Assembly: GCA_015055515.1 (NCBI GenBank)
Contig: SVIC01000003.1
Location: 15,435-79,434 of the forward strand
Length of the DNA: 64,000 bases
From: Clostridiales bacterium
GTDB lineage: Bacteria > Bacillota > Clostridia > Christensenellales > UBA1242
Direction: 5' to 3'
Positions 14,279-37,242 of this stretch are shown piece after piece. A program made the position numbers and the translations under genes. The notes under the pieces were generated by a model. That model made no database searches, was not told the origin of the DNA, and saw only the letters and a list, made by a program, of their open reading frames with translations. How positions within the stretch are numbered: the stretch's first letter is position 1; each line of letters starts with the position of its first letter.

Positions 14279-14869
14279 CTATTTCTTTTTTGTCTCTTTT
14301 AACAAATCACGGATTTCTTTTAACAATTCTTCTTGTGTTGGATTAAGTAGTTTTTGCTCTGCTTCCAACTTTGCTTTCTCTTCAGCTGCTACCTTTGCCT
14401 TTTCGTCCGCAATACGCTTCTGCTCTGCCTCAAACTCTGCCCATACTTCCTTGTATGGTCTTCCTTCTTCTTTTGCCTTTTGTCTACAAGCCTTCTTCTG
14501 TGCTCTTACTTCTTTCTTAGATTGAGCCTCAACAAATTCACCTAGTTCTTTGAATTTCTGTCTAGAAGATACAACAATCTTAACCATAATAAATACAGAT
14601 AGAGCAATAATGAAGAAATCAATAACATATTGCAAGAAACTACCATATTTCCACAACAACTCTGTTCCATCTTCTCCAACCCTTAATACAAGACTAAGCT
14701 CTGATACACTAGCAGAACCAGTAAGAGCTGTAATAAGTGGCATAATTATATCATTAACAAGACTTGACACAATCTTGTTGAACGCAGTAGCAATAATCAT
14801 ACCTACAGCCAGGTCAAATACATTACCTCTAGTAATGAACGCCTTAAACTCTTTGAAAAACTTTCTCAT
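14279..14869 (-). CDS. mscL: Large-conductance mechanosensitive channel MscL with a long K/E/A-rich C-terminal extension
   Basis: The N-terminal 130 aa are canonical MscL (FKAFITRGNVFDLAVGMIIATAFNKIVSSLVNDIIMPLI). About 60 extra C-terminal residues follow (EAEQKRIADEKAKVAAEEKAKLEAEQK...). Confidence 0.9.
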   Translation of the reverse strand: MRKFFKEFKAFITRGNVFDLAVGMIIATAFNKIVSSLVNDIIMPLITALTGSASVSELSLVLRVGEDGTELLWKYGSFLQYVIDFFIIALSVFIMVKIVVSSRQKFKELGEFVEAQSKKEVRAQKKACRQKAKEEGRPYKEVWAEFEAEQKRIADEKAKVAAEEKAKLEAEQKLLNPTQEELLKEIRDLLKETKKK

Positions 14870-14900
14870 TTATTTTCTCCTTTGTTATACTAACTACTAT

Positions 14901-14929
14901 ATACTATCATAAAAAAAATAAAATTTCAA
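14901..14929 (-). promoter_or_regulatory. Sigma-A promoter of mscL (TTGAAA-17-TGaTAGTAT)
   Basis: The - strand has TTGAAA at 14924..14929, a 17-nt spacer and an extended -10 with TAGTAT at 14901..14906. Confidence 0.55.
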
Positions 14930-15010
14930 TAATATTAGTCGATATTTATATTAAAGAAAAACCTTAATCAACTTATATTCGTTCACTCCAACAGAATAAA
15001 AATCTCTCTG

Positions 15011-15182
15011 CAAACTAGCGTTCGTTAAGGTGGGGGTAATTAAACAACAAAAAATCACTCGTAAAGAGTGACCATTTTGGTAGGGATGAGTGGACTCATC
15101 TCTACCAACTTATTAACCTTATGAGCCCACTCAACAAAAAATGACCTTACGGTCATTGTTTTGGTAGGGATGAGTGGACTCG
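15011..15182 (-). repeat. Copy 1 of a 172-bp direct repeat (period 282 bp) made of the tRNA-Ile trailer plus the tRNA-Ile 3' end
   Basis: It is identical to 15293..15464 except at 15012/15294, 15039/15321 and 15064/15346. It contains two copies of the 23-mer ttttggtagggatgagtggactc (15075..15097 and 15159..15181) and three small hairpins. Confidence 0.95.
15078..15107. other. 30-nt near-perfect palindrome formed by the tRNA-Ile 3' end and its inverted complement (copy 1)
   Basis: The sequence TGGTAGGGATGAGT-GG-ACTCATCTCTACCA has 13 to 14 pairs including one G-T. One arm equals the acceptor 3' strand plus CCA of tRNA-Ile. Confidence 0.85.
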
Positions 15183-15233
15183 CCCCGTTTGTCGGGCAGG
15201 GTCCCCGACTACAAGCCGACCCCCACACTTATA
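15159..15233 (-). pseudogene. tRNA-Ile 3'-part relic in which 5 nt of the T arm are replaced by a 33-nt GC-rich segment
   Basis: The - strand reads ATAAGtGTGGGGGTCGG-[33 nt, 15183..15215]-CGAGTCCACTCATCCCTACCA, against the intact ATAAGGTGGGGGTCGG-TGGTT-CGAGTCCACTCATCCCTACCA. There is no D arm or 5' acceptor strand upstream. Confidence 0.75.
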
Positions 15234-15359
15234 TTTTTCTTGTCAGAAAAATGAAGGCACAGTTCCACTCTGATACAATCTTTTAGATTGTACGAACTAG
15301 CGTTCGTTAAGGTGGGGGTATTTAAACAACAAAAAATCACTCGTAGAGAGTGACCATTT

Positions 15360-15389
15360 TGGTAGGGATGAGTGGACTCATCTCTACCA
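15360..15389. other. 30-nt tRNA-3'-end palindrome (copy 2)
   Basis: The sequence is identical to 15078..15107. Confidence 0.85.
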
Positions 15390-15415
15390 ACTTATTAACC
15401 TTATGAGCCCACTCA

Positions 15416-15439
15416 ACAAAAAATGACCTTACGGTCATT
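15416..15439 (-). terminator. Terminator-like hairpin immediately 3' of tRNA-Ile (duplicated at 15134..15157)
   Basis: After the CCA, the - strand reads aaaac-AATGACC-GTAA-GGTCATT-TTTT. This is a 7-bp stem with a GNRA loop and a short T-run. Confidence 0.45.
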
Positions 15440-15443
15440 GTTT

Positions 15444-15520
15444 TGGTAGGGATGAGTGGACTCGAACCACCGACCCCCACCTTATCAGAGTGGTGCTCTA
15501 ACCGGCTGAGCTACATCCCT
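15444..15520 (-). tRNA. tRNA-Ile (anticodon GAU), CCA encoded
   Basis: The reverse complement is AGGGATGTAGCTCAGCCGGTTAGAGCACCACTCTGATAAGGTGGGGGTCGGTGGTTCGAGTCCACTCATCCCTACCA. It folds by hand into a full cloverleaf: 7-bp acceptor stem, GCTC/GAGC D stem, CCACT/GGTGG anticodon stem, CTGATAA loop and a GGTGG-TTCGAGT-CCACT T arm. Confidence 0.93.
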
Positions 15521-15557
15521 ATATGCTAAAATTAAAGAGTTTAGCCTCATCTTGTGG

Positions 15558-15645
15558 GACCCACCTTATATTTTCCTAAAGGAAAATGGCGTTCGCTTCG
15601 CTCGGCTCCAGAGTGGTGCTCTAACCGGCTTAAGTTTCTATCCCT
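15558..15645 (-). pseudogene. tRNA-Ile-derived relic (5' two-thirds) with a 39-nt insertion inside the anticodon
   Basis: The - strand reads AGGGATAGAAACTTAAGCCGGTTAGAGCACCACTCTG-[39 nt, 15570..15608]-ATAAGGTGGGTC. It has a degenerate acceptor/D region and no T arm. The same ATAT 5' flank precedes it as precedes the intact gene. Confidence 0.8.
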
Positions 15646-15685
15646 ATATTCATGTTTTACCGACTTTATCATCTGTCAATTAAAT

Positions 15686-15762
15686 TGGTGGAGATAAAGA
15701 GATTCGAACTCTTGACCCCCTGCTTGCAAGGCAGGTGCTCTAGCCAGCTGAGCTATACCCCC
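15686..15762 (-). tRNA. tRNA-Ala (anticodon UGC), CCA encoded
   Basis: The reverse complement is GGGGGTATAGCTCAGCTGGCTAGAGCACCTGCCTTGCAAGCAGGGGGTCAAGAGTTCGAATCTCTTTATCTCCACCA. The G3:U70 identity pair is present, the anticodon loop is CTTGCAA, and all four stems pair. Confidence 0.95.
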
Positions 15763-15792
15763 ATAACGCATCTTTTTTCAAAATGCGATATT

Positions 15793-15821
15793 ATATTAAC
15801 ATTTATTAATAGCGTTGTCAA
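15793..15821 (-). promoter_or_regulatory. Sigma-A promoter of the tRNA-Ala/tRNA-Ile unit (TTGACA-17-TAATAT)
   Basis: The - strand has TTGACA at 15816..15821, a 17-nt spacer and TAATAT at 15793..15798, about 30 nt upstream of the tRNA-Ala 5' end. Confidence 0.65.
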
Positions 15822-15893
15822 TGATTTTTTATAGAAATTTCAAAAAAATTTATTTTTATTATAACACCTCATATAATTATCACTTCTAATACA

Positions 15894-25476: not shown

Positions 25477-28400
25477 ATGGAGAAAAATATGATTAACACT
25501 AACATCAAGAAAACAACAGGTAAAAATATTATTGCAATATCGCTAAGTATAATACTTGCATTTGTATTATCGCACATAATATTTAGCACAAAAACTCTGG
25601 CAGAGAATAGCACCTACATGCCAGACTTTATTGTAGCAACAACCAATATAAGAGAAACAAACAACTATCAAAACAACGCCGTAGATATAATATACGAAGA
25701 GAACTCTGCGGGATCTTTCGTTATGTGGGCGAACGAGTATTATAACCTAAGAGACAATACTCTTAGCCAAGTACCTAACTACAAGCAAGTTATTAGCGTT
25801 GATGGAGATACAAATGTTGCTTCAATAAGTGACTACTACACCTATGATGCAGGAACGGGAAAATTTACTGGCTTGCTTGAACTTCCAGAGGCTAATAAGT
25901 GGTATAGATACGATGATAATGGCAAGCTAAGCCCAATAGGTGCTCGCCTATCAAAAGACAATCTTACTAGTGCCATTTCAATGGAAGATAGCAGAGTAGA
26001 TAGCAAAGATTCTGATGTTAGAAAAATAATTATAGATGGAAAAGATGTATATATACAAGTAGGAGAAGAAAACAAAATTTACTCAAAAGACTACTATTAT
26101 GGATATAATTATAAGTCTTTCAAATCAGAGTATAGTTATAAACCAATTACGCCATCTGATAGTGCGGAAATATCCTACACATATATCTCCGATCTAACAA
26201 CCGATCCTATATCAACAAGTGAGCACAAGTATACTTATATTTCAAATATATTTGAGAAGCATACAGACACAAGTGGCAAATTCGCATATTACAATAACTC
26301 TTGGATGAAGGTTGAATTATGTAATGCTGATGGCATAATCACCAATACAACTGATGACACATACGTAATATTAGAAAAAGACGGACAACTACCTAAGATA
26401 TGGGTGTCTGGATCAACATATTATTATAAAGATACAAATGGCGATAAAAAACAACTTGAGAGCCAACCCGAATTCTATACATATTCTATTCAAAACGGCT
26501 TATATTGCATATCCGGAACAGAATATCTATTACTAGAAAATGAGAATATAGATAGATTTGATGGAACTAAATTAACCCTAACTGGTAATGTCGAGCTAGA
26601 ACTAGATCAACTATATACCAGAGTATACATTAACGAACCATATCTAAAAATAGGCGCTAACACAGAAAAAACTGTAGAATTCGTAAAATTAGACAATACC
26701 GACCCTGCAAATATAAATTTCATATCTGGTAGCATATCGATTAACAAGCACTTATTCAGCATTTCCTATGACAATGCTAATATAATAAACTATAATGGTG
26801 TATGGCAAATAATAGAATATTGTCGTGCAGATGGAGGAAAATTATCCAACACCACAGAAAAAACTAATTATGTAATATTAGAAAAAGATAATAACAATAC
26901 ATCAGTATGGGGTGAATTGAACTCCAACAAGTATTATTACAAAGATGGTGCAAACACAAAAGAACGAACTACCAATGCCACTAACAATGCCCTTCCAACA
27001 TTATATGGCTATAAATTAAACAGTGGATTATATAGTCACAAAGACTACGAATATATTCCGCTAAAAGATGCCGTAATAACAAATATTAGTTACGATGAAA
27101 ACACATTAAAAGAAATAAAGGTTACAACTAATACTGGTAGAGAGCTAACAATCAACAACCTTTCAGATAACCTTTATACAAACAACTATTATTATGAGAT
27201 CTACAAAGCCGTATATGGCGAAGATAAGAACACAATCTTAGATTATGAATTATACAATTACGAATTAAAAGCAAGCGACAACACAAAAGGAAACTTCGAT
27301 AGTTATCAAAGCTTTATAAGTACATATTTTGCAGAAGACAACCTAGATGAATTATACTTCTTGGGCACAGACGGGGCTTATCACGAACTATTCAACACCG
27401 TATACGCTAATAGTGCTAAAGAAGTAATAACTTCTACCACTAGCGATATTGTACTAGACAACTACAAAGTACAAAGAGATCTATACAACTCTGATATTGC
27501 AACTACAGATAATCAAAATGTAGAGAATATATATCTTAGTTTTGGCGATATATACTACCCTAACATAAACGACAACAGCAAAAATGCATTTAATATCATT
27601 ATCACAGAATTGTCTGTTAATATGACATTGACTAATAGTTATTACAACGAGATACCGGTAATAATTAATGAGCCAATTAGACAAGAAAATATCAACTTAT
27701 CTAATGATGTAACCAAGCAAAATTGTTTCTGGTTCCAATATCTAGACCTTCAAAATCTAAGAACATATTCGGGATCAAACCTATCTGACACCAGAATAAT
27801 AGAACATTCTGCCGGAGAATACCAAATTGAAATAACATACAATACTTACAATATCGAGACAGGTATCAGTTCTACATCACAGAATTTCTCTTATTCGTTA
27901 ATTGTAGATGAGACAAGCAACAAAGACAGTTATCCTATTATAAATAATACTGAATATGTAGAAAAAGATAACAACTACCCTATATATACATATAACTTCC
28001 AAAGCATGAACAAGCCAGAGATAATGTTCGATGCTAGCGAATACTCGATGCAATATTCATATAACTACGATGAGTATAATACAGATTACAATTCTGCATT
28101 GAACATATTCAAAAGAGACACTGTTACAAAAGACACATTAGTAACATATGCTACTGCCACTGGAACTGAGAACACAGAGCAGAATATAAAATATTATCAA
28201 GAACATTCAATATTTACTTGGGTAGAAAGCGGATACATCAATAATATCGAAGTAAACAGAACACATTCTAGAACAAAAATACTAGCAAATGCCACTATTA
28301 TAGAAAAACCAACAAATGGTAAAATCCAAATAGTTGGCGCCACCAATGTTGATATTGACAAGGTTGCGATATTAGAATATACATATTATATCGATTCCCC

Positions 28401-31400
28401 TTCAAATGCATTCGTGAACGACAATTATTCTTCGCTGCAATTCGATAAGAAAATTGTCTCAATTGTTGGATACAGCACAGCAGAGAATACTTACTACATT
28501 TGGCACTATATAACAGATATTGAAAAATCAAAAGATGATTCTTTTGTAAGTTATAACAAAGTAATTAATGAATATATAACAAAGATATCCAAGCCAGTAA
28601 ATTATAGGTCATACGACAATATGTACAAGTTCTATAACTTAGATAAAACGCCTGCTACAGATTATGCAAAATTAGAAAAAGGTTTTGCTAGCAGAAAATA
28701 CGACTACTATTTCGATTATGAGCAGTTGGATTTCGATTATATCATAACTGATGAATTTTCCAACTTAGGTGAATACGTATTCGAAATGGGCTATGTAACA
28801 AGCACAAAATACTCACCTAGCAAAACACCTTATAACACATACAATCTGCACAATATCTCTAAAGACGTTATAGCAATTGAACCAAACTTCGATCCAAAAG
28901 GACTTGTTAATCTGCAACAAGGCACACTAAATGGAGGATATAATATATCTATATTTGGTGTAAAATCATATTTCAATAAGTACATGTCTGCGACATCAAC
29001 TACTGTACAGACCGAATTAATGCTAGAGTCAGAAAATATTTATAGTGACATGACCGCCACTATTAATTCAATTAATAACACTAATAAAATTGAACAAATG
29101 CCACAGGCAGGAACAACAATAAATAATGCGGGAACATCTATAGGAAAAGTACCTAATACCAACCAAGTACCAATTTACTTCGAATACTTATGTTCTTATG
29201 CATACACTGGAAACATTTCGAATAGCAGAATTTACAGATACCCTAGCTTCGTATACAACGATGATAATACATGCACAATCAAAAATACTAATAATTATAT
29301 CACCAGCTATTTTGATAAGAACTCAAGACCTGAAGATGATGGATATTATGAGATTATAATAGAGTATTCATATAAAAATAACGATACTAATTACGAGTCC
29401 GACAAGCAATATCAAGTATTTGCATTCGTTATAGACAACTCCTCTCCAGAGGTGGCATACGATACACTAAAAGAAACAATTGACAGCAAAGAATATAAAT
29501 ACTTAGATTGGCAAAGCATGGCATCCAACAATATAACAAACTCTATTGTTAGAGCTAATTGGAATACGCCTAATTACTTCCAATACGATATAATTCCAAC
29601 CATTACAAAGGAAAATTACTCTGGCGTATCAAGCATCTATGGATCAAGTGATAGCACTTCAACAATTAATGCTATAAGCGGAACTAATGAAGAAGTATTC
29701 ATTCATATTAATGAGACAGAGAAGATATCTCTTACAGGCAATGCAGATATTGTAAAAAATAATGGAGTAATACAATATACCGATAAAGCTGGACTAATTG
29801 CAGAAAAGTATTATATAACAAAGTATGACAATGCACATTTGACCAAGGTACCTGTATTCAAGCTAATAGTAGATCAGAACGCAAATCTTGACACAATACT
29901 AGAACAAAGCAAGAAAGAGTATTATCAAACAAGAATATTGAATAATACACTATATCCATCAGATATGTACAACGCTAAGATTGTGGATATTATTAACACT
30001 ATTATCCAGAGTGGAACATCAATTAGTTTTGAATTTATAGGATACAAATGGCAATTCATGATATACCCTACTTCGACACATCTAGATGAAATTAATAAAA
30101 TACAATCTAGTGGTAGCATATGGGGAAGCGGAAACTACTTATTAAAACTAACATATGGTAGCAGTGCAACATCTAACATAACTAGTAGGTTTGTTATAGA
30201 TACACTACCTATATCAAATGTCGTAGCTAGAAGTGTTATGTTATATAACAGCGGAAATATAATATCCAAAGGTTTTAATGGAAATTGCAACTTTGCAAGC
30301 GGATCGAACAACTTAATAAATGAGCCATTTACATTAATATACGATTCTAAAACAAGTGGAGCTGATATCACTACTTATTATAGAAAGATTTCATTCAAAT
30401 CCACTACAATAGATAAAGATTATGACAGACTGTATCTAGCAGACACCACCGTAGGTGTACTTACAGATATAGAGTTAACTGCAAGCGAAGATGCTCGATG
30501 GAAAAAATATACATATAATTATAACTACGGAGAGGCAGGATCAACAGTTCCTACAGGAAACGAATTCAATCCTGATTCTACATCACTATATGTATTCTAC
30601 TTAGAAGATCGTGCGGGCAACAAAGCTAATTATTATGTATTGTATGACAACTCTACACCTAAATACAGTGTGGAGTTAAGTGAAAAAGATAAAACATCAA
30701 ACAACTTCAATCTATACAATATTATCACAGACAATACAACACTATTCTGGGGAAATTATAAGGCAATTGAAGTATCTGGAAGCCTAGATATAGGTTATAT
30801 TATTAATAGAGCAAATCATATCAACTATCAACCTACAGCAATTGAAATGGCACTGAAAGATATCGTTGCAAAAAGCACTAATAACACTTATCTAGGAGCA
30901 AGCTACAAAACTTTTAGAAAAGATAATAACAAGTGGGAAGAAATAAGCAATGCAGACTATTCATCGGGAGATAAATGCTTTATATTAATACCTTTATCTA
31001 ACACAACATTCAACTATTCTCAAACAAACGCCGATGATAAGACAGAGAAGCAATTCATATTCAATATGCTTACTGGCAAAATTAACCAAACCATACTATC
31101 CCCTACAGCATTAGATTTAGCAATTGCAAATGGCTTAGTGGCAAACAACGCAACAGATACTGAAAAAGAGGCAGCAAGAAACCTAATAAAACGTAGCCCT
31201 CAAGGCACATATGGATTCTATGGCGAGATTCAATATGATTACGTAATAGAAGATATTCTAGGAAATAGCGATGGTGGCTTCTTATGGATGAACAACGACT
31301 TGACAGTAGCAATGGCATGGATGACTAATGCAAAAACTGACAAAGAATTGAGCAACAATGATGATCTGGGCGTATTTGCAGCAACAGATCTATCTAGCGC

Positions 31401-34400
31401 ATACGCAACTAGCCAAGTATACTTCACTTATTTAACTAGTATAGATAGTTCTATACCTACTGCAGAATTCGATTATAAATATTATCCATTTGAAGATTTA
31501 AGTAAAACCGGATTCTATAACAATTATAAAATAAAAAATATTTCATACAATAGTTCGAAAAGCTGTTATGAGATAATATTTGTAGATGAAAAGGACAACC
31601 AAATTACACATAACTACAGTGCTTTGTCTACTAACAACTATAATGCTGATGGAGATGCAGTAAATGAACCAAATAGTACTTATCCATTTACTATTTCCCC
31701 TACAACAGCATCTAACAATGGTTGGAACAAAATAACAGCAACTTCTAATTACAATGTTGCAGGAGACCCAAATAGAAAGGTGTCCAATCTAATTAACGAT
31801 ATATCTGATACATCTATTAAATATTCTGGAGCTGGTCTATATGTATTTAGAAGAGTATATGTAGATTATGTAGATGCTACACAATATAGCAATGGCATAA
31901 CAATTGTCAATAAAGCAAAAGCTGAAGAACTGGATAAAGATAGTGCTGTAAGATACTATGTATATTATATTGACAGAAATTCTATAATAGATGTAACTAA
32001 CATGATAGGCTCTGATATAACACTAACATATGGTAACTATATTCATGCTGTAACAAACGACAATGAGAATAACTTAAGCATTGATAATAACTATGCCAAT
32101 GTATATGGCTATGACAGCATATCAATAGATGCTGTACAGCAATCCAGCACATCAAATAGTGTTCAGACTTATGTATCTAGCGATAGTACCAACAAGATAT
32201 ATATCTCTCTAGATATGCCTATGGATAAATACAATCAGCCTAGAGCAGTAGCATTTGCAAAAGAAACTGATTTTGCATTGTCTATGACCGAAGCTGATAA
32301 AGCAAATACTGAATCTATGCTACGTAAGTTCTACAACCTATCTGAGAATCAGAATATTACTGAAGCACAAATAAATGAATTTATTAACAACTTCCTTGGC
32401 AAATACATGTTCGATAATTACAACGGTTTTGCAAACGGAACATATAATAAAAATTTCCAATTGAACGTAACCTTAAAAAATGGAAACAATGCGATCATGG
32501 AAAATAATATTATCACAGAGAATAATTCCATATACTTCAAACAGTATTCTGCAACAACATTACAGACCTCAACTGTTTCATCTATTGATAGACAAAACTT
32601 TACTAATTATTTAAGAAATGATATTACTTCAATCATCCTTAATGATCCTTCCGGCGATGGTTACAACTTTGCTATATCAGACAGCTCATTATTTACAAGA
32701 AATAACGTTATAATATCTGAAGCAAACTCATTGAATATTAACAACATTAATATCGCACCTATGAAGCCTACAGGATCTGTAATAGGTAAAAACCCAAATA
32801 CTAAATATCTAACTGATACAGAGTCTGAGAACTATGTACAAAACTTGTTCCAAAATGATCAGTTAAAGAGTATGAAATATTATGTTGCTTCGGCAGATAG
32901 CATATACCCTAATTCTAACAACAGTACCTTAATATTCTTAATAGATAATGATATATTAACTAACCTTACAGCAACAACAAACCCTTACAATATTGTAATT
33001 AATAAATTTAGTGAAAATGGTACTAAAAGCACAATATTTACTAGTAGCCTAACATACGAGATAGTTAATGGCGAAGTTGTTCCAAAATTCACTGCCAATA
33101 ATGCAAATGCCTTCATTAGTAATGCAACGATAGATAATAAGGCTACAAAATGGGCAATAGTAGTATTTGACAAGACTGCAAAGAATGAACAATATAAGAA
33201 TATATTATCAAATGCTGATGACAATGCAACATACCAGATTACTATCCAGCACTATGGTAAAAAAGAAGATTATATAGACAAAGATGTCAAACAGAACATA
33301 GCATTCAGCGATACTCAAGAGATAACAATTGATCACATAAAACCAATAATTAACCAAATAAAATTAATGGAGCAAGACAAATTTATCTCAAAGAATTTTG
33401 CAAAAATAAAATCATCAATTGAAGCTCAGAATAACAATCTTGTATATAATGATATACAATCATACTACAACGACTTAATTAGTAGAATTTCTAGTGGTAC
33501 AATCACCAAGATTGGAGCACAAAAATATTTGAAAAATGTATATGATATATACCTTGAATGCTACAAGAACTTAATGGGTAAAGAAGATAATTTCTTAAAA
33601 ACATTTACCGATCAATTCGGAGAAAAAGTAAATTACTGGAATAACTATTATTTCACAGTAGATGATAACTTCGAATTCATAAGTGGACTTCCTAGCCTTA
33701 ACAATGAAGATGGTAACGGAATGGGACTGGATTGTTATAACAATATTTATTTTAGAAAAATATCAGATCTGACTAAATACAAATATTCAATAACAACAGA
33801 TGACTTTACATCAACTACTAGTTCAGATATTACTGGTCACAGCATATTCTATGATAACATTGCAGAGACCTATGACAGCAGCAATAACCCAACTATAGAA
33901 TCTGACACAACCTTCTATAAAATAAGCCACACAAACAACAAAAATTATAAATTATTTGGTGAATCTATCAAAGATCCTGGTTATTATGAAATAATAGAAC
34001 GTGATGAGGCTGGAAACTATAGCGTATACCTAGTACACTATAATAATAACGGTAACGAATATAAATACACTTATTCTAAGTTATTTAATGACAAAACAGA
34101 AGATGAAATCAACCTAAGCTCAACAAAAGTTAATGAGATTCTAGGTACTGGGCTGGCATTGTCTAATGCGAATACGGATAATGTCGCCGATATGTTCCGT
34201 GCAGAAATAGCCTATACATTCACGACTATAAAAGAAGATGGCACTGTTGATAGAGTATACAACAATACATCCTCACCTATTTATATTTATTCTACAATGA
34301 TGAACAACGCTGTAGATATATATTATGATCGTAAGAATGACAATATGATAGACATAGACTCTGATTTATTGCAGTCTATCACTGGAATTGTAGCACTTGA

Positions 34401-37242
34401 AAACACAAGTTTAGGTAATGAGATAATCAACAAAGCATTATCAAGAATAAAAGAAATACTGATGTATATATCTAATACTTACACTGATATAGCTCTTGAC
34501 TTTGAATACAGTATTAATATATATGACAAGGTATATGGTAATTATGTTATATCTTACAAATGCCCAGGAAAGCAGTTAGAGTTGGATATAAACAAAGGCG
34601 ATTATTCATTCAATGTTACAATACCTAACAACGAAGTAGGAAGAGCTACCAAGATTGTAAGCTTTAAGGCACGATACTCCAATAGTTCTGCCCCTATACA
34701 GCGTGACAAAAATGGCAACGAGATTCCTGACACTTCTAATAACAAACTTCCATTAAATTCTACTACTTATACATTTAACTATGCAGATGGATCTCAAACT
34801 CAAGGATCTGCTATCATTATTGAGACTATAGACAATTTCGGCAGAAACAAAATATATTATATTACTAACAAAAATGATAGGTTATATTATACCGAAATGA
34901 ACACTATAAAACACTATAATGATACTTATACAGATGATGAGATCAAGATAGTATATAATAGTGATCTATATAACGCAGTAATCATAGAGCAAGTAGATGA
35001 ATCTAATCAACTAACTATTACAACAAGATTAAATGCAAATAATAGTTATCCTATAGCAAATAATGATTATTTGAGATACGATGTCACAGATCTACCTACT
35101 TGGACTAGAAAAGATGACAAAGGAAATATAATATATACAGTATCTAGCGACAAATTATTAAATGAGACTGGTTATATTACTCTAACAATTAAGCAAAACA
35201 TAGATAAAAAATCGAAATTTATTATTTTATTCTTGGACAAGAGCACAATAACAAGTGAAACAACCATAAATGAGTTATACAAAAGTTATGTATCTTTCGT
35301 TAGCAAGCCTGAAGGAATATTATATAACGATGATACGAAGGTAACAATGTATACTTATCTTCCAGAAATCAAATTAATTAATAATAGCAATAGAGTAATT
35401 ACTACTTCTAAAACTATAAAAGATCAAAAAGAACTACTACTATTCATAGAACAATTAAAATACAGATTAGAATATAGTCAAGAGATATTGTTTAATCCAA
35501 GAATATCTATTGCAAAGAACAATATTCAATATGCTGTCATTCCTGAAGAATTAAGTGAAAACGTAAGCCTTGGCAATGGTACATACAGGCTTGTAATATC
35601 TAATGACCTAGGATATTATAGTGAAATAAATTTCAAGATAGAAATCCAAGAAAATATAGCAGACTATGCATTATATATTAATAATAATTTGATGCAAAAA
35701 TCTACATATATTAATACAGATGACGGTAAAATAGTGTATCACTATTATACTACCCTATTGGATGCAACAACTAAGCCGAAGATTAATATAATAACAAATT
35801 CTAACAACAACATTGCTTGCACAAAAATAGAAGATGCTGTAGTAGAAAACAGCAATGATTTGTATGAAACATATAAGGTACACAAGAAAGATAATCCTGA
35901 TGTAATAATAGAATATTTCACTATATATTATTTAGAGAAAGACAAATACAACTTTGTCGATGATAACGGTGGACAAATTGTAAAGATTAATAATAAGAAA
36001 TCATTCAATACCGCACAAGATATAGCATCTGTAAGCAGTTCTAAGAATGACAACAAACTATATATAATCTTTGCCAATACCATAAACGGAAACAACGATC
36101 ATACACAAGGCAATACTATATCACTAACCTATTATTACAATAATGCTTCGACTAAGACAGAAGAAATAAAAATAAATAAGTTAAACAAGTTCATAGAAGA
36201 TGGCAAAACTTATTATTACTATGAAATATCTGAAACTGGTTTACATAAATTTGTAGTAAGTGACCTTGCTGGACAAAGATTAAAATCTGGCAACAGAGAT
36301 TACTTCAATATAACTTTGATTAATAGCATAATATATGAAATCAAAGTTGATGAAGATAAATATATTCAAAATCTACAAAATTACATAACTAACAACGAAG
36401 TTGTTATAAGATTGCTAGATCAAGTAGGCAACACTAACCTATATGATATTATATATGATCAAATAAGAATAACTAGAAATGGTGAATTGTTAACAGACAT
36501 AAAACAAACAACTAAAAATGTATATACTTTCACTACTCCTGGATCATATGAAATACAAGTAAGTGCTAGTGATTCAAGCAATCCTAAGCCTATAACTCAT
36601 TCTATATACTTTACTATAGTAAATCCGAACATAGCATACAGTTCGTATACAATATCATCTGCAAAAGGCTACACAATTAAATCGGTAACAAAGAGATTAA
36701 ATAACACAGAGAATTCCAAGCCTACACCTATAAACGCTTTCAACAATTCTAATTCGTTACTAATTAGTTGTGCCGAGCATGGTGCTGGATATTATACCAT
36801 AACGGTTACAAAATATCTAGAAAGCATTAAGTCTGAAAAAGAATTTTCATTCAATGTATGGCTAAATGATAGAACTGAATCTAGTATAATTATAGCATCT
36901 ATTCCATTCGGAACAGAGACAACAGATACTATTACTATACGATATAACGCATCAAATATATATAATAATATAGGTGAATCTTTCATTAAGATAAATGGAA
37001 ATATTATAGACACTATTACAAAAGATAGCACCTCTGAAACTTCTACCTATAATATAACTGAAAAAGGTGTATATTGGGTAACAATAGAATCTGCTAATGG
37101 TCAAGTTATAGCTAGCTATAAATTAACCAAGAATGAACCACTAAATGCAACTGCCCAGATAATAATAATTGTTGTTGTTGTAGCAGTAATTGCTCTAGTA
37201 GTTATATTCATAATCTTGAGAAAGAAGACTAAGTTCAGATAA
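25477..37242 (+). CDS. Giant (3,921 aa) N/Y/T/I/D-rich cell-surface protein with an N-terminal signal peptide and a C-terminal TM anchor; function unknown
   Basis: A single uninterrupted 11,766-nt ORF. The second ATG at 25489 has the better RBS (GGAG 6 nt upstream). The signal peptide is IIAISLSIILAFVLSHIIFSTKTLA/EN. The C-terminus is AQIIIIVVVVAVIALVVIFIIL-RKKTKFR. Recurrent beta-sandwich-like module ends are present (G-x-Y-x-I/V ... D-x-AGN). I recognised no enzyme, LPXTG, SLH or YD/RHS motif. Confidence 0.85.
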   Translation: MEKNMINTNIKKTTGKNIIAISLSIILAFVLSHIIFSTKTLAENSTYMPDFIVATTNIRETNNYQNNAVDIIYEENSAGSFVMWANEYYNLRDNTLSQVPNYKQVISVDGDTNVASISDYYTYDAGTGKFTGLLELPEANKWYRYDDNGKLSPIGARLSKDNLTSAISMEDSRVDSKDSDVRKIIIDGKDVYIQVGEENKIYSKDYYYGYNYKSFKSEYSYKPITPSDSAEISYTYISDLTTDPISTSEHKYTYISNIFEKHTDTSGKFAYYNNSWMKVELCNADGIITNTTDDTYVILEKDGQLPKIWVSGSTYYYKDTNGDKKQLESQPEFYTYSIQNGLYCISGTEYLLLENENIDRFDGTKLTLTGNVELELDQLYTRVYINEPYLKIGANTEKTVEFVKLDNTDPANINFISGSISINKHLFSISYDNANIINYNGVWQIIEYCRADGGKLSNTTEKTNYVILEKDNNNTSVWGELNSNKYYYKDGANTKERTTNATNNALPTLYGYKLNSGLYSHKDYEYIPLKDAVITNISYDENTLKEIKVTTNTGRELTINNLSDNLYTNNYYYEIYKAVYGEDKNTILDYELYNYELKASDNTKGNFDSYQSFISTYFAEDNLDELYFLGTDGAYHELFNTVYANSAKEVITSTTSDIVLDNYKVQRDLYNSDIATTDNQNVENIYLSFGDIYYPNINDNSKNAFNIIITELSVNMTLTNSYYNEIPVIINEPIRQENINLSNDVTKQNCFWFQYLDLQNLRTYSGSNLSDTRIIEHSAGEYQIEITYNTYNIETGISSTSQNFSYSLIVDETSNKDSYPIINNTEYVEKDNNYPIYTYNFQSMNKPEIMFDASEYSMQYSYNYDEYNTDYNSALNIFKRDTVTKDTLVTYATATGTENTEQNIKYYQEHSIFTWVESGYINNIEVNRTHSRTKILANATIIEKPTNGKIQIVGATNVDIDKVAILEYTYYIDSPSNAFVNDNYSSLQFDKKIVSIVGYSTAENTYYIWHYITDIEKSKDDSFVSYNKVINEYITKISKPVNYRSYDNMYKFYNLDKTPATDYAKLEKGFASRKYDYYFDYEQLDFDYIITDEFSNLGEYVFEMGYVTSTKYSPSKTPYNTYNLHNISKDVIAIEPNFDPKGLVNLQQGTLNGGYNISIFGVKSYFNKYMSATSTTVQTELMLESENIYSDMTATINSINNTNKIEQMPQAGTTINNAGTSIGKVPNTNQVPIYFEYLCSYAYTGNISNSRIYRYPSFVYNDDNTCTIKNTNNYITSYFDKNSRPEDDGYYEIIIEYSYKNNDTNYESDKQYQVFAFVIDNSSPEVAYDTLKETIDSKEYKYLDWQSMASNNITNSIVRANWNTPNYFQYDIIPTITKENYSGVSSIYGSSDSTSTINAISGTNEEVFIHINETEKISLTGNADIVKNNGVIQYTDKAGLIAEKYYITKYDNAHLTKVPVFKLIVDQNANLDTILEQSKKEYYQTRILNNTLYPSDMYNAKIVDIINTIIQSGTSISFEFIGYKWQFMIYPTSTHLDEINKIQSSGSIWGSGNYLLKLTYGSSATSNITSRFVIDTLPISNVVARSVMLYNSGNIISKGFNGNCNFASGSNNLINEPFTLIYDSKTSGADITTYYRKISFKSTTIDKDYDRLYLADTTVGVLTDIELTASEDARWKKYTYNYNYGEAGSTVPTGNEFNPDSTSLYVFYLEDRAGNKANYYVLYDNSTPKYSVELSEKDKTSNNFNLYNIITDNTTLFWGNYKAIEVSGSLDIGYIINRANHINYQPTAIEMALKDIVAKSTNNTYLGASYKTFRKDNNKWEEISNADYSSGDKCFILIPLSNTTFNYSQTNADDKTEKQFIFNMLTGKINQTILSPTALDLAIANGLVANNATDTEKEAARNLIKRSPQGTYGFYGEIQYDYVIEDILGNSDGGFLWMNNDLTVAMAWMTNAKTDKELSNNDDLGVFAATDLSSAYATSQVYFTYLTSIDSSIPTAEFDYKYYPFEDLSKTGFYNNYKIKNISYNSSKSCYEIIFVDEKDNQITHNYSALSTNNYNADGDAVNEPNSTYPFTISPTTASNNGWNKITATSNYNVAGDPNRKVSNLINDISDTSIKYSGAGLYVFRRVYVDYVDATQYSNGITIVNKAKAEELDKDSAVRYYVYYIDRNSIIDVTNMIGSDITLTYGNYIHAVTNDNENNLSIDNNYANVYGYDSISIDAVQQSSTSNSVQTYVSSDSTNKIYISLDMPMDKYNQPRAVAFAKETDFALSMTEADKANTESMLRKFYNLSENQNITEAQINEFINNFLGKYMFDNYNGFANGTYNKNFQLNVTLKNGNNAIMENNIITENNSIYFKQYSATTLQTSTVSSIDRQNFTNYLRNDITSIILNDPSGDGYNFAISDSSLFTRNNVIISEANSLNINNINIAPMKPTGSVIGKNPNTKYLTDTESENYVQNLFQNDQLKSMKYYVASADSIYPNSNNSTLIFLIDNDILTNLTATTNPYNIVINKFSENGTKSTIFTSSLTYEIVNGEVVPKFTANNANAFISNATIDNKATKWAIVVFDKTAKNEQYKNILSNADDNATYQITIQHYGKKEDYIDKDVKQNIAFSDTQEITIDHIKPIINQIKLMEQDKFISKNFAKIKSSIEAQNNNLVYNDIQSYYNDLISRISSGTITKIGAQKYLKNVYDIYLECYKNLMGKEDNFLKTFTDQFGEKVNYWNNYYFTVDDNFEFISGLPSLNNEDGNGMGLDCYNNIYFRKISDLTKYKYSITTDDFTSTTSSDITGHSIFYDNIAETYDSSNNPTIESDTTFYKISHTNNKNYKLFGESIKDPGYYEIIERDEAGNYSVYLVHYNNNGNEYKYTYSKLFNDKTEDEINLSSTKVNEILGTGLALSNANTDNVADMFRAEIAYTFTTIKEDGTVDRVYNNTSSPIYIYSTMMNNAVDIYYDRKNDNMIDIDSDLLQSITGIVALENTSLGNEIINKALSRIKEILMYISNTYTDIALDFEYSINIYDKVYGNYVISYKCPGKQLELDINKGDYSFNVTIPNNEVGRATKIVSFKARYSNSSAPIQRDKNGNEIPDTSNNKLPLNSTTYTFNYADGSQTQGSAIIIETIDNFGRNKIYYITNKNDRLYYTEMNTIKHYNDTYTDDEIKIVYNSDLYNAVIIEQVDESNQLTITTRLNANNSYPIANNDYLRYDVTDLPTWTRKDDKGNIIYTVSSDKLLNETGYITLTIKQNIDKKSKFIILFLDKSTITSETTINELYKSYVSFVSKPEGILYNDDTKVTMYTYLPEIKLINNSNRVITTSKTIKDQKELLLFIEQLKYRLEYSQEILFNPRISIAKNNIQYAVIPEELSENVSLGNGTYRLVISNDLGYYSEINFKIEIQENIADYALYINNNLMQKSTYINTDDGKIVYHYYTTLLDATTKPKINIITNSNNNIACTKIEDAVVENSNDLYETYKVHKKDNPDVIIEYFTIYYLEKDKYNFVDDNGGQIVKINNKKSFNTAQDIASVSSSKNDNKLYIIFANTINGNNDHTQGNTISLTYYYNNASTKTEEIKINKLNKFIEDGKTYYYYEISETGLHKFVVSDLAGQRLKSGNRDYFNITLINSIIYEIKVDEDKYIQNLQNYITNNEVVIRLLDQVGNTNLYDIIYDQIRITRNGELLTDIKQTTKNVYTFTTPGSYEIQVSASDSSNPKPITHSIYFTIVNPNIAYSSYTISSAKGYTIKSVTKRLNNTENSKPTPINAFNNSNSLLISCAEHGAGYYTITVTKYLESIKSEKEFSFNVWLNDRTESSIIIASIPFGTETTDTITIRYNASNIYNNIGESFIKINGNIIDTITKDSTSETSTYNITEKGVYWVTIESANGQVIASYKLTKNEPLNATAQIIIIVVVVAVIALVVIFIILRKKTKFR

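Follow-up and report, generated by a model that had tools for sequence, protein, structure and literature searches.

Introduction

Recombination at transfer RNA (tRNA) genes is known to produce partial tRNA genes beside the intact ones (PMC9897764; PMC4383910; bioRxiv 10.1101/2020.12.28.424599). In Islander/TIGER-type systems displaced partial tRNAs lie at the borders of islands and prophages (PMC9897764; PMC4383910). Downstream of a tRNA gene, CIMEs and tycheposons leave several of its partial copies in a row, and every copy stands for a past event (PMC5704250; bioRxiv 10.1101/2020.12.28.424599). Here we analyze a stretch of 64,000 nucleotides (nt) from a Clostridiales bacterium (contig SVIC01000003.1; subsequently designated the window), in which a second tRNA-Ile-like sequence, the relic, lies between the intact genes for tRNA-Ala(UGC) and tRNA-Ile(GAU). 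A previous reading made from the sequence alone had described it as a tRNA pseudogene carrying a 39-nt insertion in the anticodon. Our data make it probable that the relic is a dead mosaic copy of tRNA-Ile(GAU), located where relatives have the live gene. Downstream of the live gene follows a trailer array of further partial tRNA-Ile copies.

The locus resembles the Islander/TIGER-type cases in that a partial copy stands beside the intact gene, in that an exact block ends in the anticodon or T loop, in its variable presence among relatives and in being miscalled or missed by tRNA finders. In contrast to these cases, there is no island or integrase between relic and gene, the relic is a 5' part located upstream, and the DNA in between is a short non-coding hairpin module conserved across species. 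An integrated element of this type would restore the 3' part of the tRNA and move the old 3' fragment to its far end; the trailer array with its distal 3' fragments agrees with this, the relic as a 5' part upstream does not. With the arrays of CIMEs and tycheposons the locus shares the downstream row of partial copies of one tRNA and the absence of recombination genes, the repeats flanking short non-coding DNA in our case. However, the units measure 84–282 nt, have no coding capacity, include inverted tRNA pieces, are flanked by repeats that are 97–99% identical within a genome, and are orthologous across species. Moreover, the layout recurs at other tRNAs in housekeeping neighbourhoods.

Results

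The relic joins a 5' part of tRNA-Ile to a segment of a repeat module

The relic extends from 15645 to about 15556 within an Ala-Ile spacer of 165 nt; coordinates of all features, which without exception are on the minus strand, are compiled in Table 1. It joins three things, namely the 5' part of tRNA-Ile up to G34, a segment of a repeat module and unrelated sequence. In order, the region reads AATAT AGGGATAGAAACTTAAGCCGGTTAGAGCACCACTCTG, followed by GAGCCGAGCGAAGCGAACGCC (subsequently designated GC piece) and the hairpin ATTTTCC-TTTA-GGAAAAT, and finally by ATAAGGTGGG and TCCCACAAG. As previously noted, the tRNA-Ile-like sequence starts at 15645 behind the same ATAT 5' flank as the real gene, and the anticodon is split by exactly the 39 nt reported (15570..15608), which consist of a GC-rich piece and a perfect 7-bp hairpin.

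Identity with the live gene is non-uniform. The 21 nt at 15629..15609 (GCCGGTTAGAGCACCACTCTG) are identical to 15506..15486 of the live gene, this 21-mer occurring twice vs. zero expected occurrences, while the first 16 nt of the relic are decayed or scrambled (AGGGATAGAAACTTAA vs. AGGGATGTAGCTCA). Even decay would not be expected to leave 21/21 identities next to 16 scrambled nt, and this juxtaposition suggests a boundary of recombination or conversion. The D arm, which had been called recognizable, has kept its D loop and 3' strand, but its 5' strand CTTA (GCTC in the gene) is unable to pair with GAGC. T arm and 3' acceptor strand are missing from the relic. Its tail resembles the array only to the degree that shuffled sequence does, and assignment of the tail to a decayed 'W' unit of the array or to the tRNA 3' end was rejected as not significant (123/500 shuffles scored equally well). 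The live tRNA-Ile begins 38 nt downstream of the last tRNA-like base of the relic, which places the two 5' ends 125 nt apart. The relic-bearing spacer folds no better than shuffled sequences (z = -1.0).

For comparison, homologues of cardiolipin synthase (cls) led to two related species, one of them represented by contigs L084 and L085 (cls 64% identical), and homologues of MscL to closer relatives, among which L092 is the nearest (MscL 88% identical). Similarity of MscL and cardiolipin synthase groups the organism of the window with uncultured gut Clostridia resembling Christensenellales. L084 and L085 possess a tandem array downstream of tRNA-Ile. Its unit starts with the last 21 nt of the tRNA, a terminator, CCCCCACCTTAA, two hairpins, TAT(C/T)AGAGTGG and AACGTTG, and continues with GAGCCGAGCGATAGCGAATGCC, a hairpin, ATAAGTGGGGGTCGG, GTAGTCGGGTACCCTGCCCGAC and again the last 21 nt. 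The 39 nt of the relic align with GC piece and hairpin of the L085 unit at 33/36 identities, the local alignment score being 45 as compared to 14.2 ± 2.3 for shuffled sequences, of which 0/1000 reached 45. Therefore, the presumed insert is a segment of a pre-existing module. This module is always followed by ATAAG, i.e. the start of the tRNA-Ile 3' half, and since the 39 nt together with ATAAG are homologous to a ready-made segment of the L084/L085 unit, the relic is a mosaic of the tRNA 5' half and a repeat-unit piece, and the description as a tRNA with a 39-nt insertion has to be abandoned. The array units of L085, L092 and the window also have a hairpin at this position in front of ATAAG, the differences being paired changes (CC/GG vs. 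CT/AG). The insertion point had been considered unambiguous. This is correct relative to the tRNA, but the L084 unit also has TG before GAGCC, and the boundary of the module at the left junction could lie 2 nt further left (13-mer TGGAGCCGAGCGA common with the L084 unit).

Other sources of the GC piece were considered and rejected. As reverse complement of the D arm or another tRNA part it scores like shuffled sequence against both strands of tRNA-Ile and tRNA-Ala. The single exact match in IMG/VR maps to coding sequence on a viral contig that is rich in GC and has no tRNA, and was attributed to chance. No IMG/VR match was obtained for either the GC hairpin (see below) or the 3' block, and BLAST searches of phages and plasmids returned matches to tRNAs only.

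Table 1. Positions of the features at the tRNA-Ala/tRNA-Ile locus in the window (minus strand throughout).
Feature	Position	Evidence or remark
Promoter-like site TTGACA-17 nt-TAATAT with TG, upstream of tRNA-Ala	15793..15821	sigma-70 match
tRNA-Ala(UGC), intact	15762..15686	ARAGORN, Rfam
Ala-Ile spacer, first half, ATTTAATTGACAGATGATAAAGTCGGTAAAACAT	15652..15685	aligned in three species; 32/34 identical to L084
Relic, 5' part (tRNA-Ile nt 1–34; 37 nt)	15645..15609	comparison with live gene
Relic, GC piece GAGCCGAGCGAAGCGAACGCC, first part of the 39-nt stretch	15588..15608	homologous to GAGCCGAGCGATAGCGAATGCC in L084/L085 repeat units
Relic, 7-bp hairpin ATTTTCC-TTTA-GGAAAAT, second part of the 39-nt stretch	15570..15587	
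Relic, ATAAGGTGGG (tRNA-Ile nt 35–44; rest of anticodon loop and 3' strand of anticodon stem)	15569..15560	
Relic, tail TCCCACAAG	15551..15559	no significant match to tRNA or array
Leader of live tRNA-Ile, ATGAGGCTAAACTCTTTAATTTTAGCATAT, with small hairpin	15521..15550	conserved in L092
tRNA-Ile(GAU), intact	15520..15444	ARAGORN, Rfam; identical to tRNA-Ile of L084 and L092
Trailer array of partial tRNA-Ile copies, both orientations	15013..15443	Joint Genome Institute (JGI) contigs identical base for base
Four terminator hairpins	15439-15422, 15355-15335, 15157-15140, 15073-15053	
Three extra exact copies of the last 20–21 nt of the tRNA	15379-15360, 15182-15162, 15097-15078	
Two 'W' segments	15416-15380, 15134-15098	
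170-nt direct repeat	15013-15182, 15295-15464	99%
Unit part X, inverted anticodon arm with interrupted loop	15265..15318	same arrangement in L092, L085
Unit part Y, sense 3' half	15183..15264	

Relatives have a plain spacer at the position of the relic

In L092, the gene order is tRNA-Ala, a 68-nt spacer, tRNA-Ile, terminator, X and Y (parts of the array unit), 3' block, terminator, partial X, and mscL. The spacer is composed of the first spacer half and the tRNA-Ile leader known from the window. Both directly abut, and the ~98 nt missing in comparison to the window are missing exactly at the position of the relic. In L084 tRNA-Ala and tRNA-Ile are separated by a plain spacer of 42 nt corresponding to the first half only, and in L086 and L087 by 47 nt of unrelated sequence. 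Plain spacers at orthologous loci were part of what the sequence-only reading had named as speaking against any significance of the relic, and three relatives (68, 42 and 47 nt) show this state. Because of these spacers, the relic is lineage-specific and dispensable. Its position is that of the ancestral gene, as follows from the near-identity of the first spacer half with L084. The array units of the window and of L092 are devoid of the GC piece, which is retained by the relic. For this reason the relic is probably older than the split of both lineages and would have been deleted in L092.

No tRNA-Ile was found near mscL at 80 GTDB loci screened for synteny, and the surroundings of a cls homologue with 47% identity bear no relation to the locus. 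Scans of metagenomes for the relic junction and for the non-tRNA 3' blocks yielded zero matches each; as the latter pattern is present in contigs L001 and L002, such short contigs are evidently missing from the collection scanned, and the zeros carry no information.

Several observations were made on neighbouring sequences of these relatives. L086 (9754-9783) and L087, two independent assemblies of a third species, have contig ends within tRNA-Ile that fall on an identical base, following GAGCACCA. A second copy of the tRNA-Ile 5' part with a different continuation is thereby suggested for this species, where a relic would be possible too. Their Ala-Ile spacer contains CGAGCGAA, an 8-mer of the GC piece. 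In L090 (1840-1880), the 11-mer AGCGAATGCCA from the GC piece of L084 occurs ~110 nt upstream of mscL and may be a remnant. Finally, the spacer half at 15652-15685 appears constrained between the window and L084 despite unalignable neutral intergenic DNA, and may contain a processing signal.

The relic lacks the features of a functional or intron-containing tRNA

In the 64-kb window, ARAGORN and Rfam call two tRNAs, i.e. the intact genes for tRNA-Ala and tRNA-Ile. The tRNA search in intron mode proposed by the earlier reading did not add to this number: for 15556-15645 there was no ARAGORN call at default settings, in intron mode (-i) or at lowered thresholds, and no match to Rfam model RF00005 at the gathering score or at E ≤ 10. 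Intron mode with thresholds lowered to 60% delivered merely junk on other strands or at other positions. These results and the lack of T arm and 3' acceptor strand agree with the status of a pseudogene assigned previously.

Where they reside in genes for tRNAs, group I introns have a size of ~200 nt or more. The interruption in the relic, which is located inside the 7-nt anticodon loop between nt 34 and 35, comprises 39 nt and is far too short for such an intron. The site itself is not exotic, as it is the classical one of the group I intron in tRNA-Leu(UAA), which reads CUU/intron/AAAA (bioRxiv 10.1101/2020.01.27.920355). Apart from this identical position the relic differs from tRNA-Leu(UAA), as it has an incomplete 3' exon and lacks a catalytic core: Rfam detected no group I intron core in 14850-15850 at E ≤ 10. 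In addition, the base preceding the 5' splice site of group I tRNA introns is U, in rare cases C, and their last base is G (bioRxiv 10.1101/2020.01.27.920355), whereas the corresponding bases of the relic stretch are G34 and T. In searches with the 4227 covariance models of Rfam 15, only tRNA reached the gathering score in the window, L092 and two contigs with comparable arrays (L031, L033). Sub-threshold matches in the locus were at chance level, and at E ≤ 10 no known RNA family of relevance was obtained for the locus and L085.

Split tRNA genes of Nanoarchaeum have halves that are joined via GC-rich complementary extensions. The relic is reminiscent of these genes in that GC-rich sequence comes after a 5' half whose end is in the anticodon loop. 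However, GAGCCGAGCGAAGCGAACGCC occurs only once in the window when both strands are searched with up to two mismatches, and there is no complementary partner; moreover, the host is a bacterium, the 3' half is truncated and a complete gene adjoins.

The trailer array consists of partial tRNA-Ile copies that break in the loops

Part X of the array unit is composed of CCCCCACCTTAA (reverse complement of tRNA nt 36–46), hairpins at 15307-15292 and 15291-15275, and TATCAGAGTGG (reverse complement of nt 27–37). Part Y contains AACTGTGCCTTC, a hairpin (15252-15233), ATAAGtGTGGGGGTCGG (tRNA nt 35–50; 15232-15216) and a GC hairpin, GTAGTCGGGGACCCTGCCCGAC (15212-15191), which replaces the 5' side of the T-stem and the T-loop; Y runs into the 3' block at 15182. 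The array is orthologous in L092 (89% identical), and L084/L085 share its architecture. All break points of the partial copies are in the anticodon loop (34–37) or in the T loop (55/56): 3' halves start at A35, and the 3' blocks of 20–21 nt start at C56/G57 in four occurrences. Each 3' block carries a terminator. The 39 open reading frames (ORFs) in the 64 kb are all housekeeping-like, and none encodes an integrase (Phage_integrase), recombinase or transposase domain.

Ordinary intergenic DNA cannot be aligned between the window and L084, the scores equaling those of shuffled sequences. Against this background, the GC piece is nearly invariant, and the stem as well as 6/7 loop nt of the GC hairpin are conserved. 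The 11-nt antisense segment of the anticodon arm, CCCCCACCTTA, is exact in 6/6 copies from three species. TATCAGAGTGG is exact in three of the four clear copies. The fourth, from an L085 unit, differs by C-to-T, and in the terminal unit of the window the segment has decayed. The sense copy in Y has a different mutation in each species. The hairpins of the units have kept their positions while their sequences changed, including one closing pair that is A-T in the window and G-C in L092. The units fold better than shuffled sequences (z = -3.95 for unit Y, and -4.30).

In the 'W' segments (15380-15416 and 15098-15134), GGTAGAGATGAG can pair with CTCATCCCTACC of the next 3' block, whereby ACC from the CCA end would be sequestered. 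A helix between GAGTGGGCTCAT and ATGAGTCCACTC is the alternative. Both helices are mutually exclusive, and 'W' is absent from L092.

The layout recurs at other tRNA genes

When the 450-nt flanks of 31 tRNAs on related contigs were scanned for segments copied from the respective tRNA, the same layout was present at 8 of them, representing five kinds of tRNA. Arrays on contigs of metagenome-assembled genomes from Clostridia accompany tRNA-Trp (L031:3400-3830), tRNA-Gly (L033:800-1263) and tRNA-Ala(GGC) (L046:5184-5445). In all of them, the tRNA and a terminator come first. An inverted tRNA segment, GC-rich sequence of ~100 nt and the last 15–21 nt as a direct copy follow, and then the same terminator again. 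No integrase gene lies beside the arrays in L031, L033 and L084. A mirror-image of this layout is found upstream of tRNA-Arg(CCU), where leader and tRNA nt 1–57 are copied in tandem and followed by GC-rich sequence instead of the remainder of the T arm. It is conserved between L028 and L050. There is one such copy in L028 (7800-8200) and two in L050 (6130-6620, minus strand), and a GC-rich stretch of 33 nt is identical between these species.

Individual arrays show further peculiarities. The inverted part in L031 corresponds to the 5' strand of the acceptor and could pair with the 3' block to yield a minihelix with GCCA at its end. The partner of the inverted copy in L033 is the T region of the tRNA itself, ahead of a T run. 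A motif resembling the GC piece precedes the tRNA-Ala 3' block in L046, but the similarity is weak (44/1000 shuffles) and is treated as unproven. Directly after this array, at L046:5475-6985, several matches to Gut-1 RNA (Rfam RF01706; 55–66 bits) sit in repeated cassettes of 615–710 nt with small ORFs.

Putative expression signals of the locus

Strong sigma-70 matches are confined to a single one in the locus, the promoter-like site upstream of tRNA-Ala, which lies in a region conserved in comparison to L084. The first terminator-like hairpin follows after tRNA-Ile. This arrangement supports the previous proposal that the relic, by its position, would be co-transcribed with both tRNAs. Elsewhere in the window, a single ORF of 3921 amino acids (25477-37242, plus strand) is oriented opposite to most genes and coincides with a shift of GC and AT skew.

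Discussion

In the interpretation we favor, the relic is a dead mosaic copy. Instead of gain of an intron, its origin would be a rearrangement of DNA that had its break point in the anticodon loop. In this lineage, the module lies in the trailer downstream of tRNA-Ile. RNA of the relic would be made from the tRNA-Ala promoter as part of the 165-nt spacer, and would be discarded upon 3' maturation of tRNA-Ala and cleavage by RNase P at the 5' end of tRNA-Ile; we infer this fate as well as the path of rearrangement from the arrangement of the locus. An ordinary tRNA pseudogene generated by local duplication would likewise be a dead copy beside its parent that is lost in a sister lineage, but the non-uniform decay and the segment imported from a different repeat module set the relic apart. 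Recombination at the tRNA gene is the most likely origin. Tyrosine integrases that target tRNA genes reportedly cross over in the anticodon and T loops, and it is because the break points are in these loops that recombination is the leading mechanism.

Several points weigh against a neutral relic with this history. GC piece and hairpin are still ~92% identical to the L085 units although ordinary intergenic DNA is unalignable. This is odd for a neutral sequence and hints at constraint, or at conversion from copies outside the window. The window contains no donor unit for the GC piece, which is lacking from unit Y (15264..15183) and likewise from the L092 unit. A simple tandem duplication would have produced identical leaders, whereas the leaders differ here, and the integrase model normally duplicates the 3' part of a tRNA rather than its 5' part. 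Finally, the relic region is known from one assembly, as the JGI contigs L001 and L002 cover 14860..15447 only.

Concerning the mechanism, the idea that fares best, tentative as it is, involves one or more tRNA-targeting elements that recombined at att sites in the anticodon or T loop and later lost their bodies. The relic would represent one junction of attL/attR type, and the trailer units would be accreted and decayed remnants similar to CIMEs. Accretion and decay of att-flanked elements are documented (PMC5704250; bioRxiv 10.1101/2020.12.28.424599). Consistent with such scars, the identity block of the relic ends at G34, 3' halves start from A35 and four 3' blocks from C56/G57, each block has its own terminator, the GC-rich stretches stand out in a genome with ~33% GC, and the relic is present in the window species and absent from the close relative L092. 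However, integrase, recombinase and transposase genes are missing from the window and from the surroundings of the L084, L031 and L033 arrays, clean excision would not leave a scar, and the relic duplicates the unusual 5' part. Moreover, units of 84–282 nt with repeats of 97–99% identity are better explained by self-duplication than by host and foreign copies, and the searches of IMG/VR, phages and plasmids recovered neither 3' block nor GC hairpin, but tRNAs only.

We regard it as rather unlikely that the copies have a replication-based origin, in which a tRNA gene rich in hairpins and under heavy transcription underwent unequal crossing-over, template switching or fold-back synthesis. Partial copies in direct and inverted orientation would be produced this way, and the relic would be an old duplicate patched from a neighbouring unit. 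The inverted and direct copies indeed form long quasi-palindromes, in which TAAG(T)GTGGGGG is predicted to pair with CCCCCACCTTA, and the fold z-scores of the units (-3.95, -4.30) are in line with this. The '1.5-repeat' layout, the homogeneity within species, the microhomology of 2 nt (TG) at the left junction of the relic and the absence of mobile-element genes also fit. Yet this scenario leaves unexplained why break points cluster in anticodon and T loops at five different tRNAs, where the GC-rich non-tRNA pieces come from and why the GC pieces are conserved between species in which neutral DNA is saturated.

Equally doubtful is a role of the units as selected structured RNA or DNA elements, of which the relic would be a co-transcribed variant. 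A possible form would be an RNA that is antisense to the anticodon arm of tRNA-Ile and contains a mimic of the 3' half ending in CCA. The unit architecture has been kept in three species (window, L092, L084/L085) despite unalignable intergenic DNA; conservation of GC hairpin, GC piece and CCCCCACCTTA, the exchange of a hairpin closing pair and fold z-scores around -4 argue in the same direction. On the other hand, the units are located behind strong terminators and lack a promoter match, no Rfam family matches, and three species are too few for covariation statistics. There is no array upstream of mscL in L090 (MscL 84% identical), where a tRNA is lacking too, and L092 is devoid of the relic, for which folding is at the level of chance.

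We also considered that the relic is an artefact of assembly at a repeat, which is very improbable. The locus is repeat-rich, contigs often break there (L001, L002, L085, L086, L087, L089, L091), and the relic region comes from a single assembly. However, mis-joining in the assembly graph would splice existing sequences only, whereas the sequences on both sides of the shared 21-mer (GC piece and tail as well as the 5' end in its decayed form) exist nowhere else in the window, and a homologue of the GC piece was obtained independently from another species. IS200/IS605-like ends, an IS110 bridge RNA, REP/RAYT elements, domain V of a group II intron, a 23S rRNA fragment and a retron were dropped as candidates, as there was no supporting gene or motif. 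A genuine interrupted gene, intron-containing or split, that gives rise to a working tRNA-Ile shares the 34/35 site with the classical tRNA-Leu(UAA) intron but is refuted by the anatomy already and has next to no likelihood in view of the missing T arm and 3' acceptor strand, the broken D stem, the silence of ARAGORN in intron mode and of Rfam, a 39-nt stretch without room for a ribozyme core and with G/T instead of U/G borders, a GC piece without complementary partner in the window and the absence of the relic from three relatives.

The relic alone is of little importance, except that annotators should avoid calling it an intron-bearing tRNA. It is ordinary, and the tRNA-derived repeat modules are the more unusual part of the locus. 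Its value is that of a pointer: it led to an array of partial tRNA-Ile copies that is conserved, has its break points in the loops and is free of mobile-element genes, and to the same layout at further tRNA genes. At low confidence, we propose that short modules rich in hairpins and made from pieces of the adjacent tRNA are present in this group of gut Clostridia and that the relic is a by-product thereof. Each module would comprise an inverted tRNA arm and a sense 3' fragment, a conserved GC hairpin in place of the T-loop region, the last 15–21 nt with CCA, and a terminator. Either recombination directed at the loops may have generated the recurrent pattern as a by-product, or the pattern may represent a class of selected elements. 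If under selection, the modules could be structured RNAs that pair with or mimic tRNA, or recombinase sites at tRNA loops, and would constitute a new class of tRNA-derived element. If the layout is selected or made by an enzyme, it would bear on the role of tRNA genes as recombination hot spots in the small genomes of gut Clostridia, and on the question whether tRNA trailers encode RNAs directed at tRNAs.

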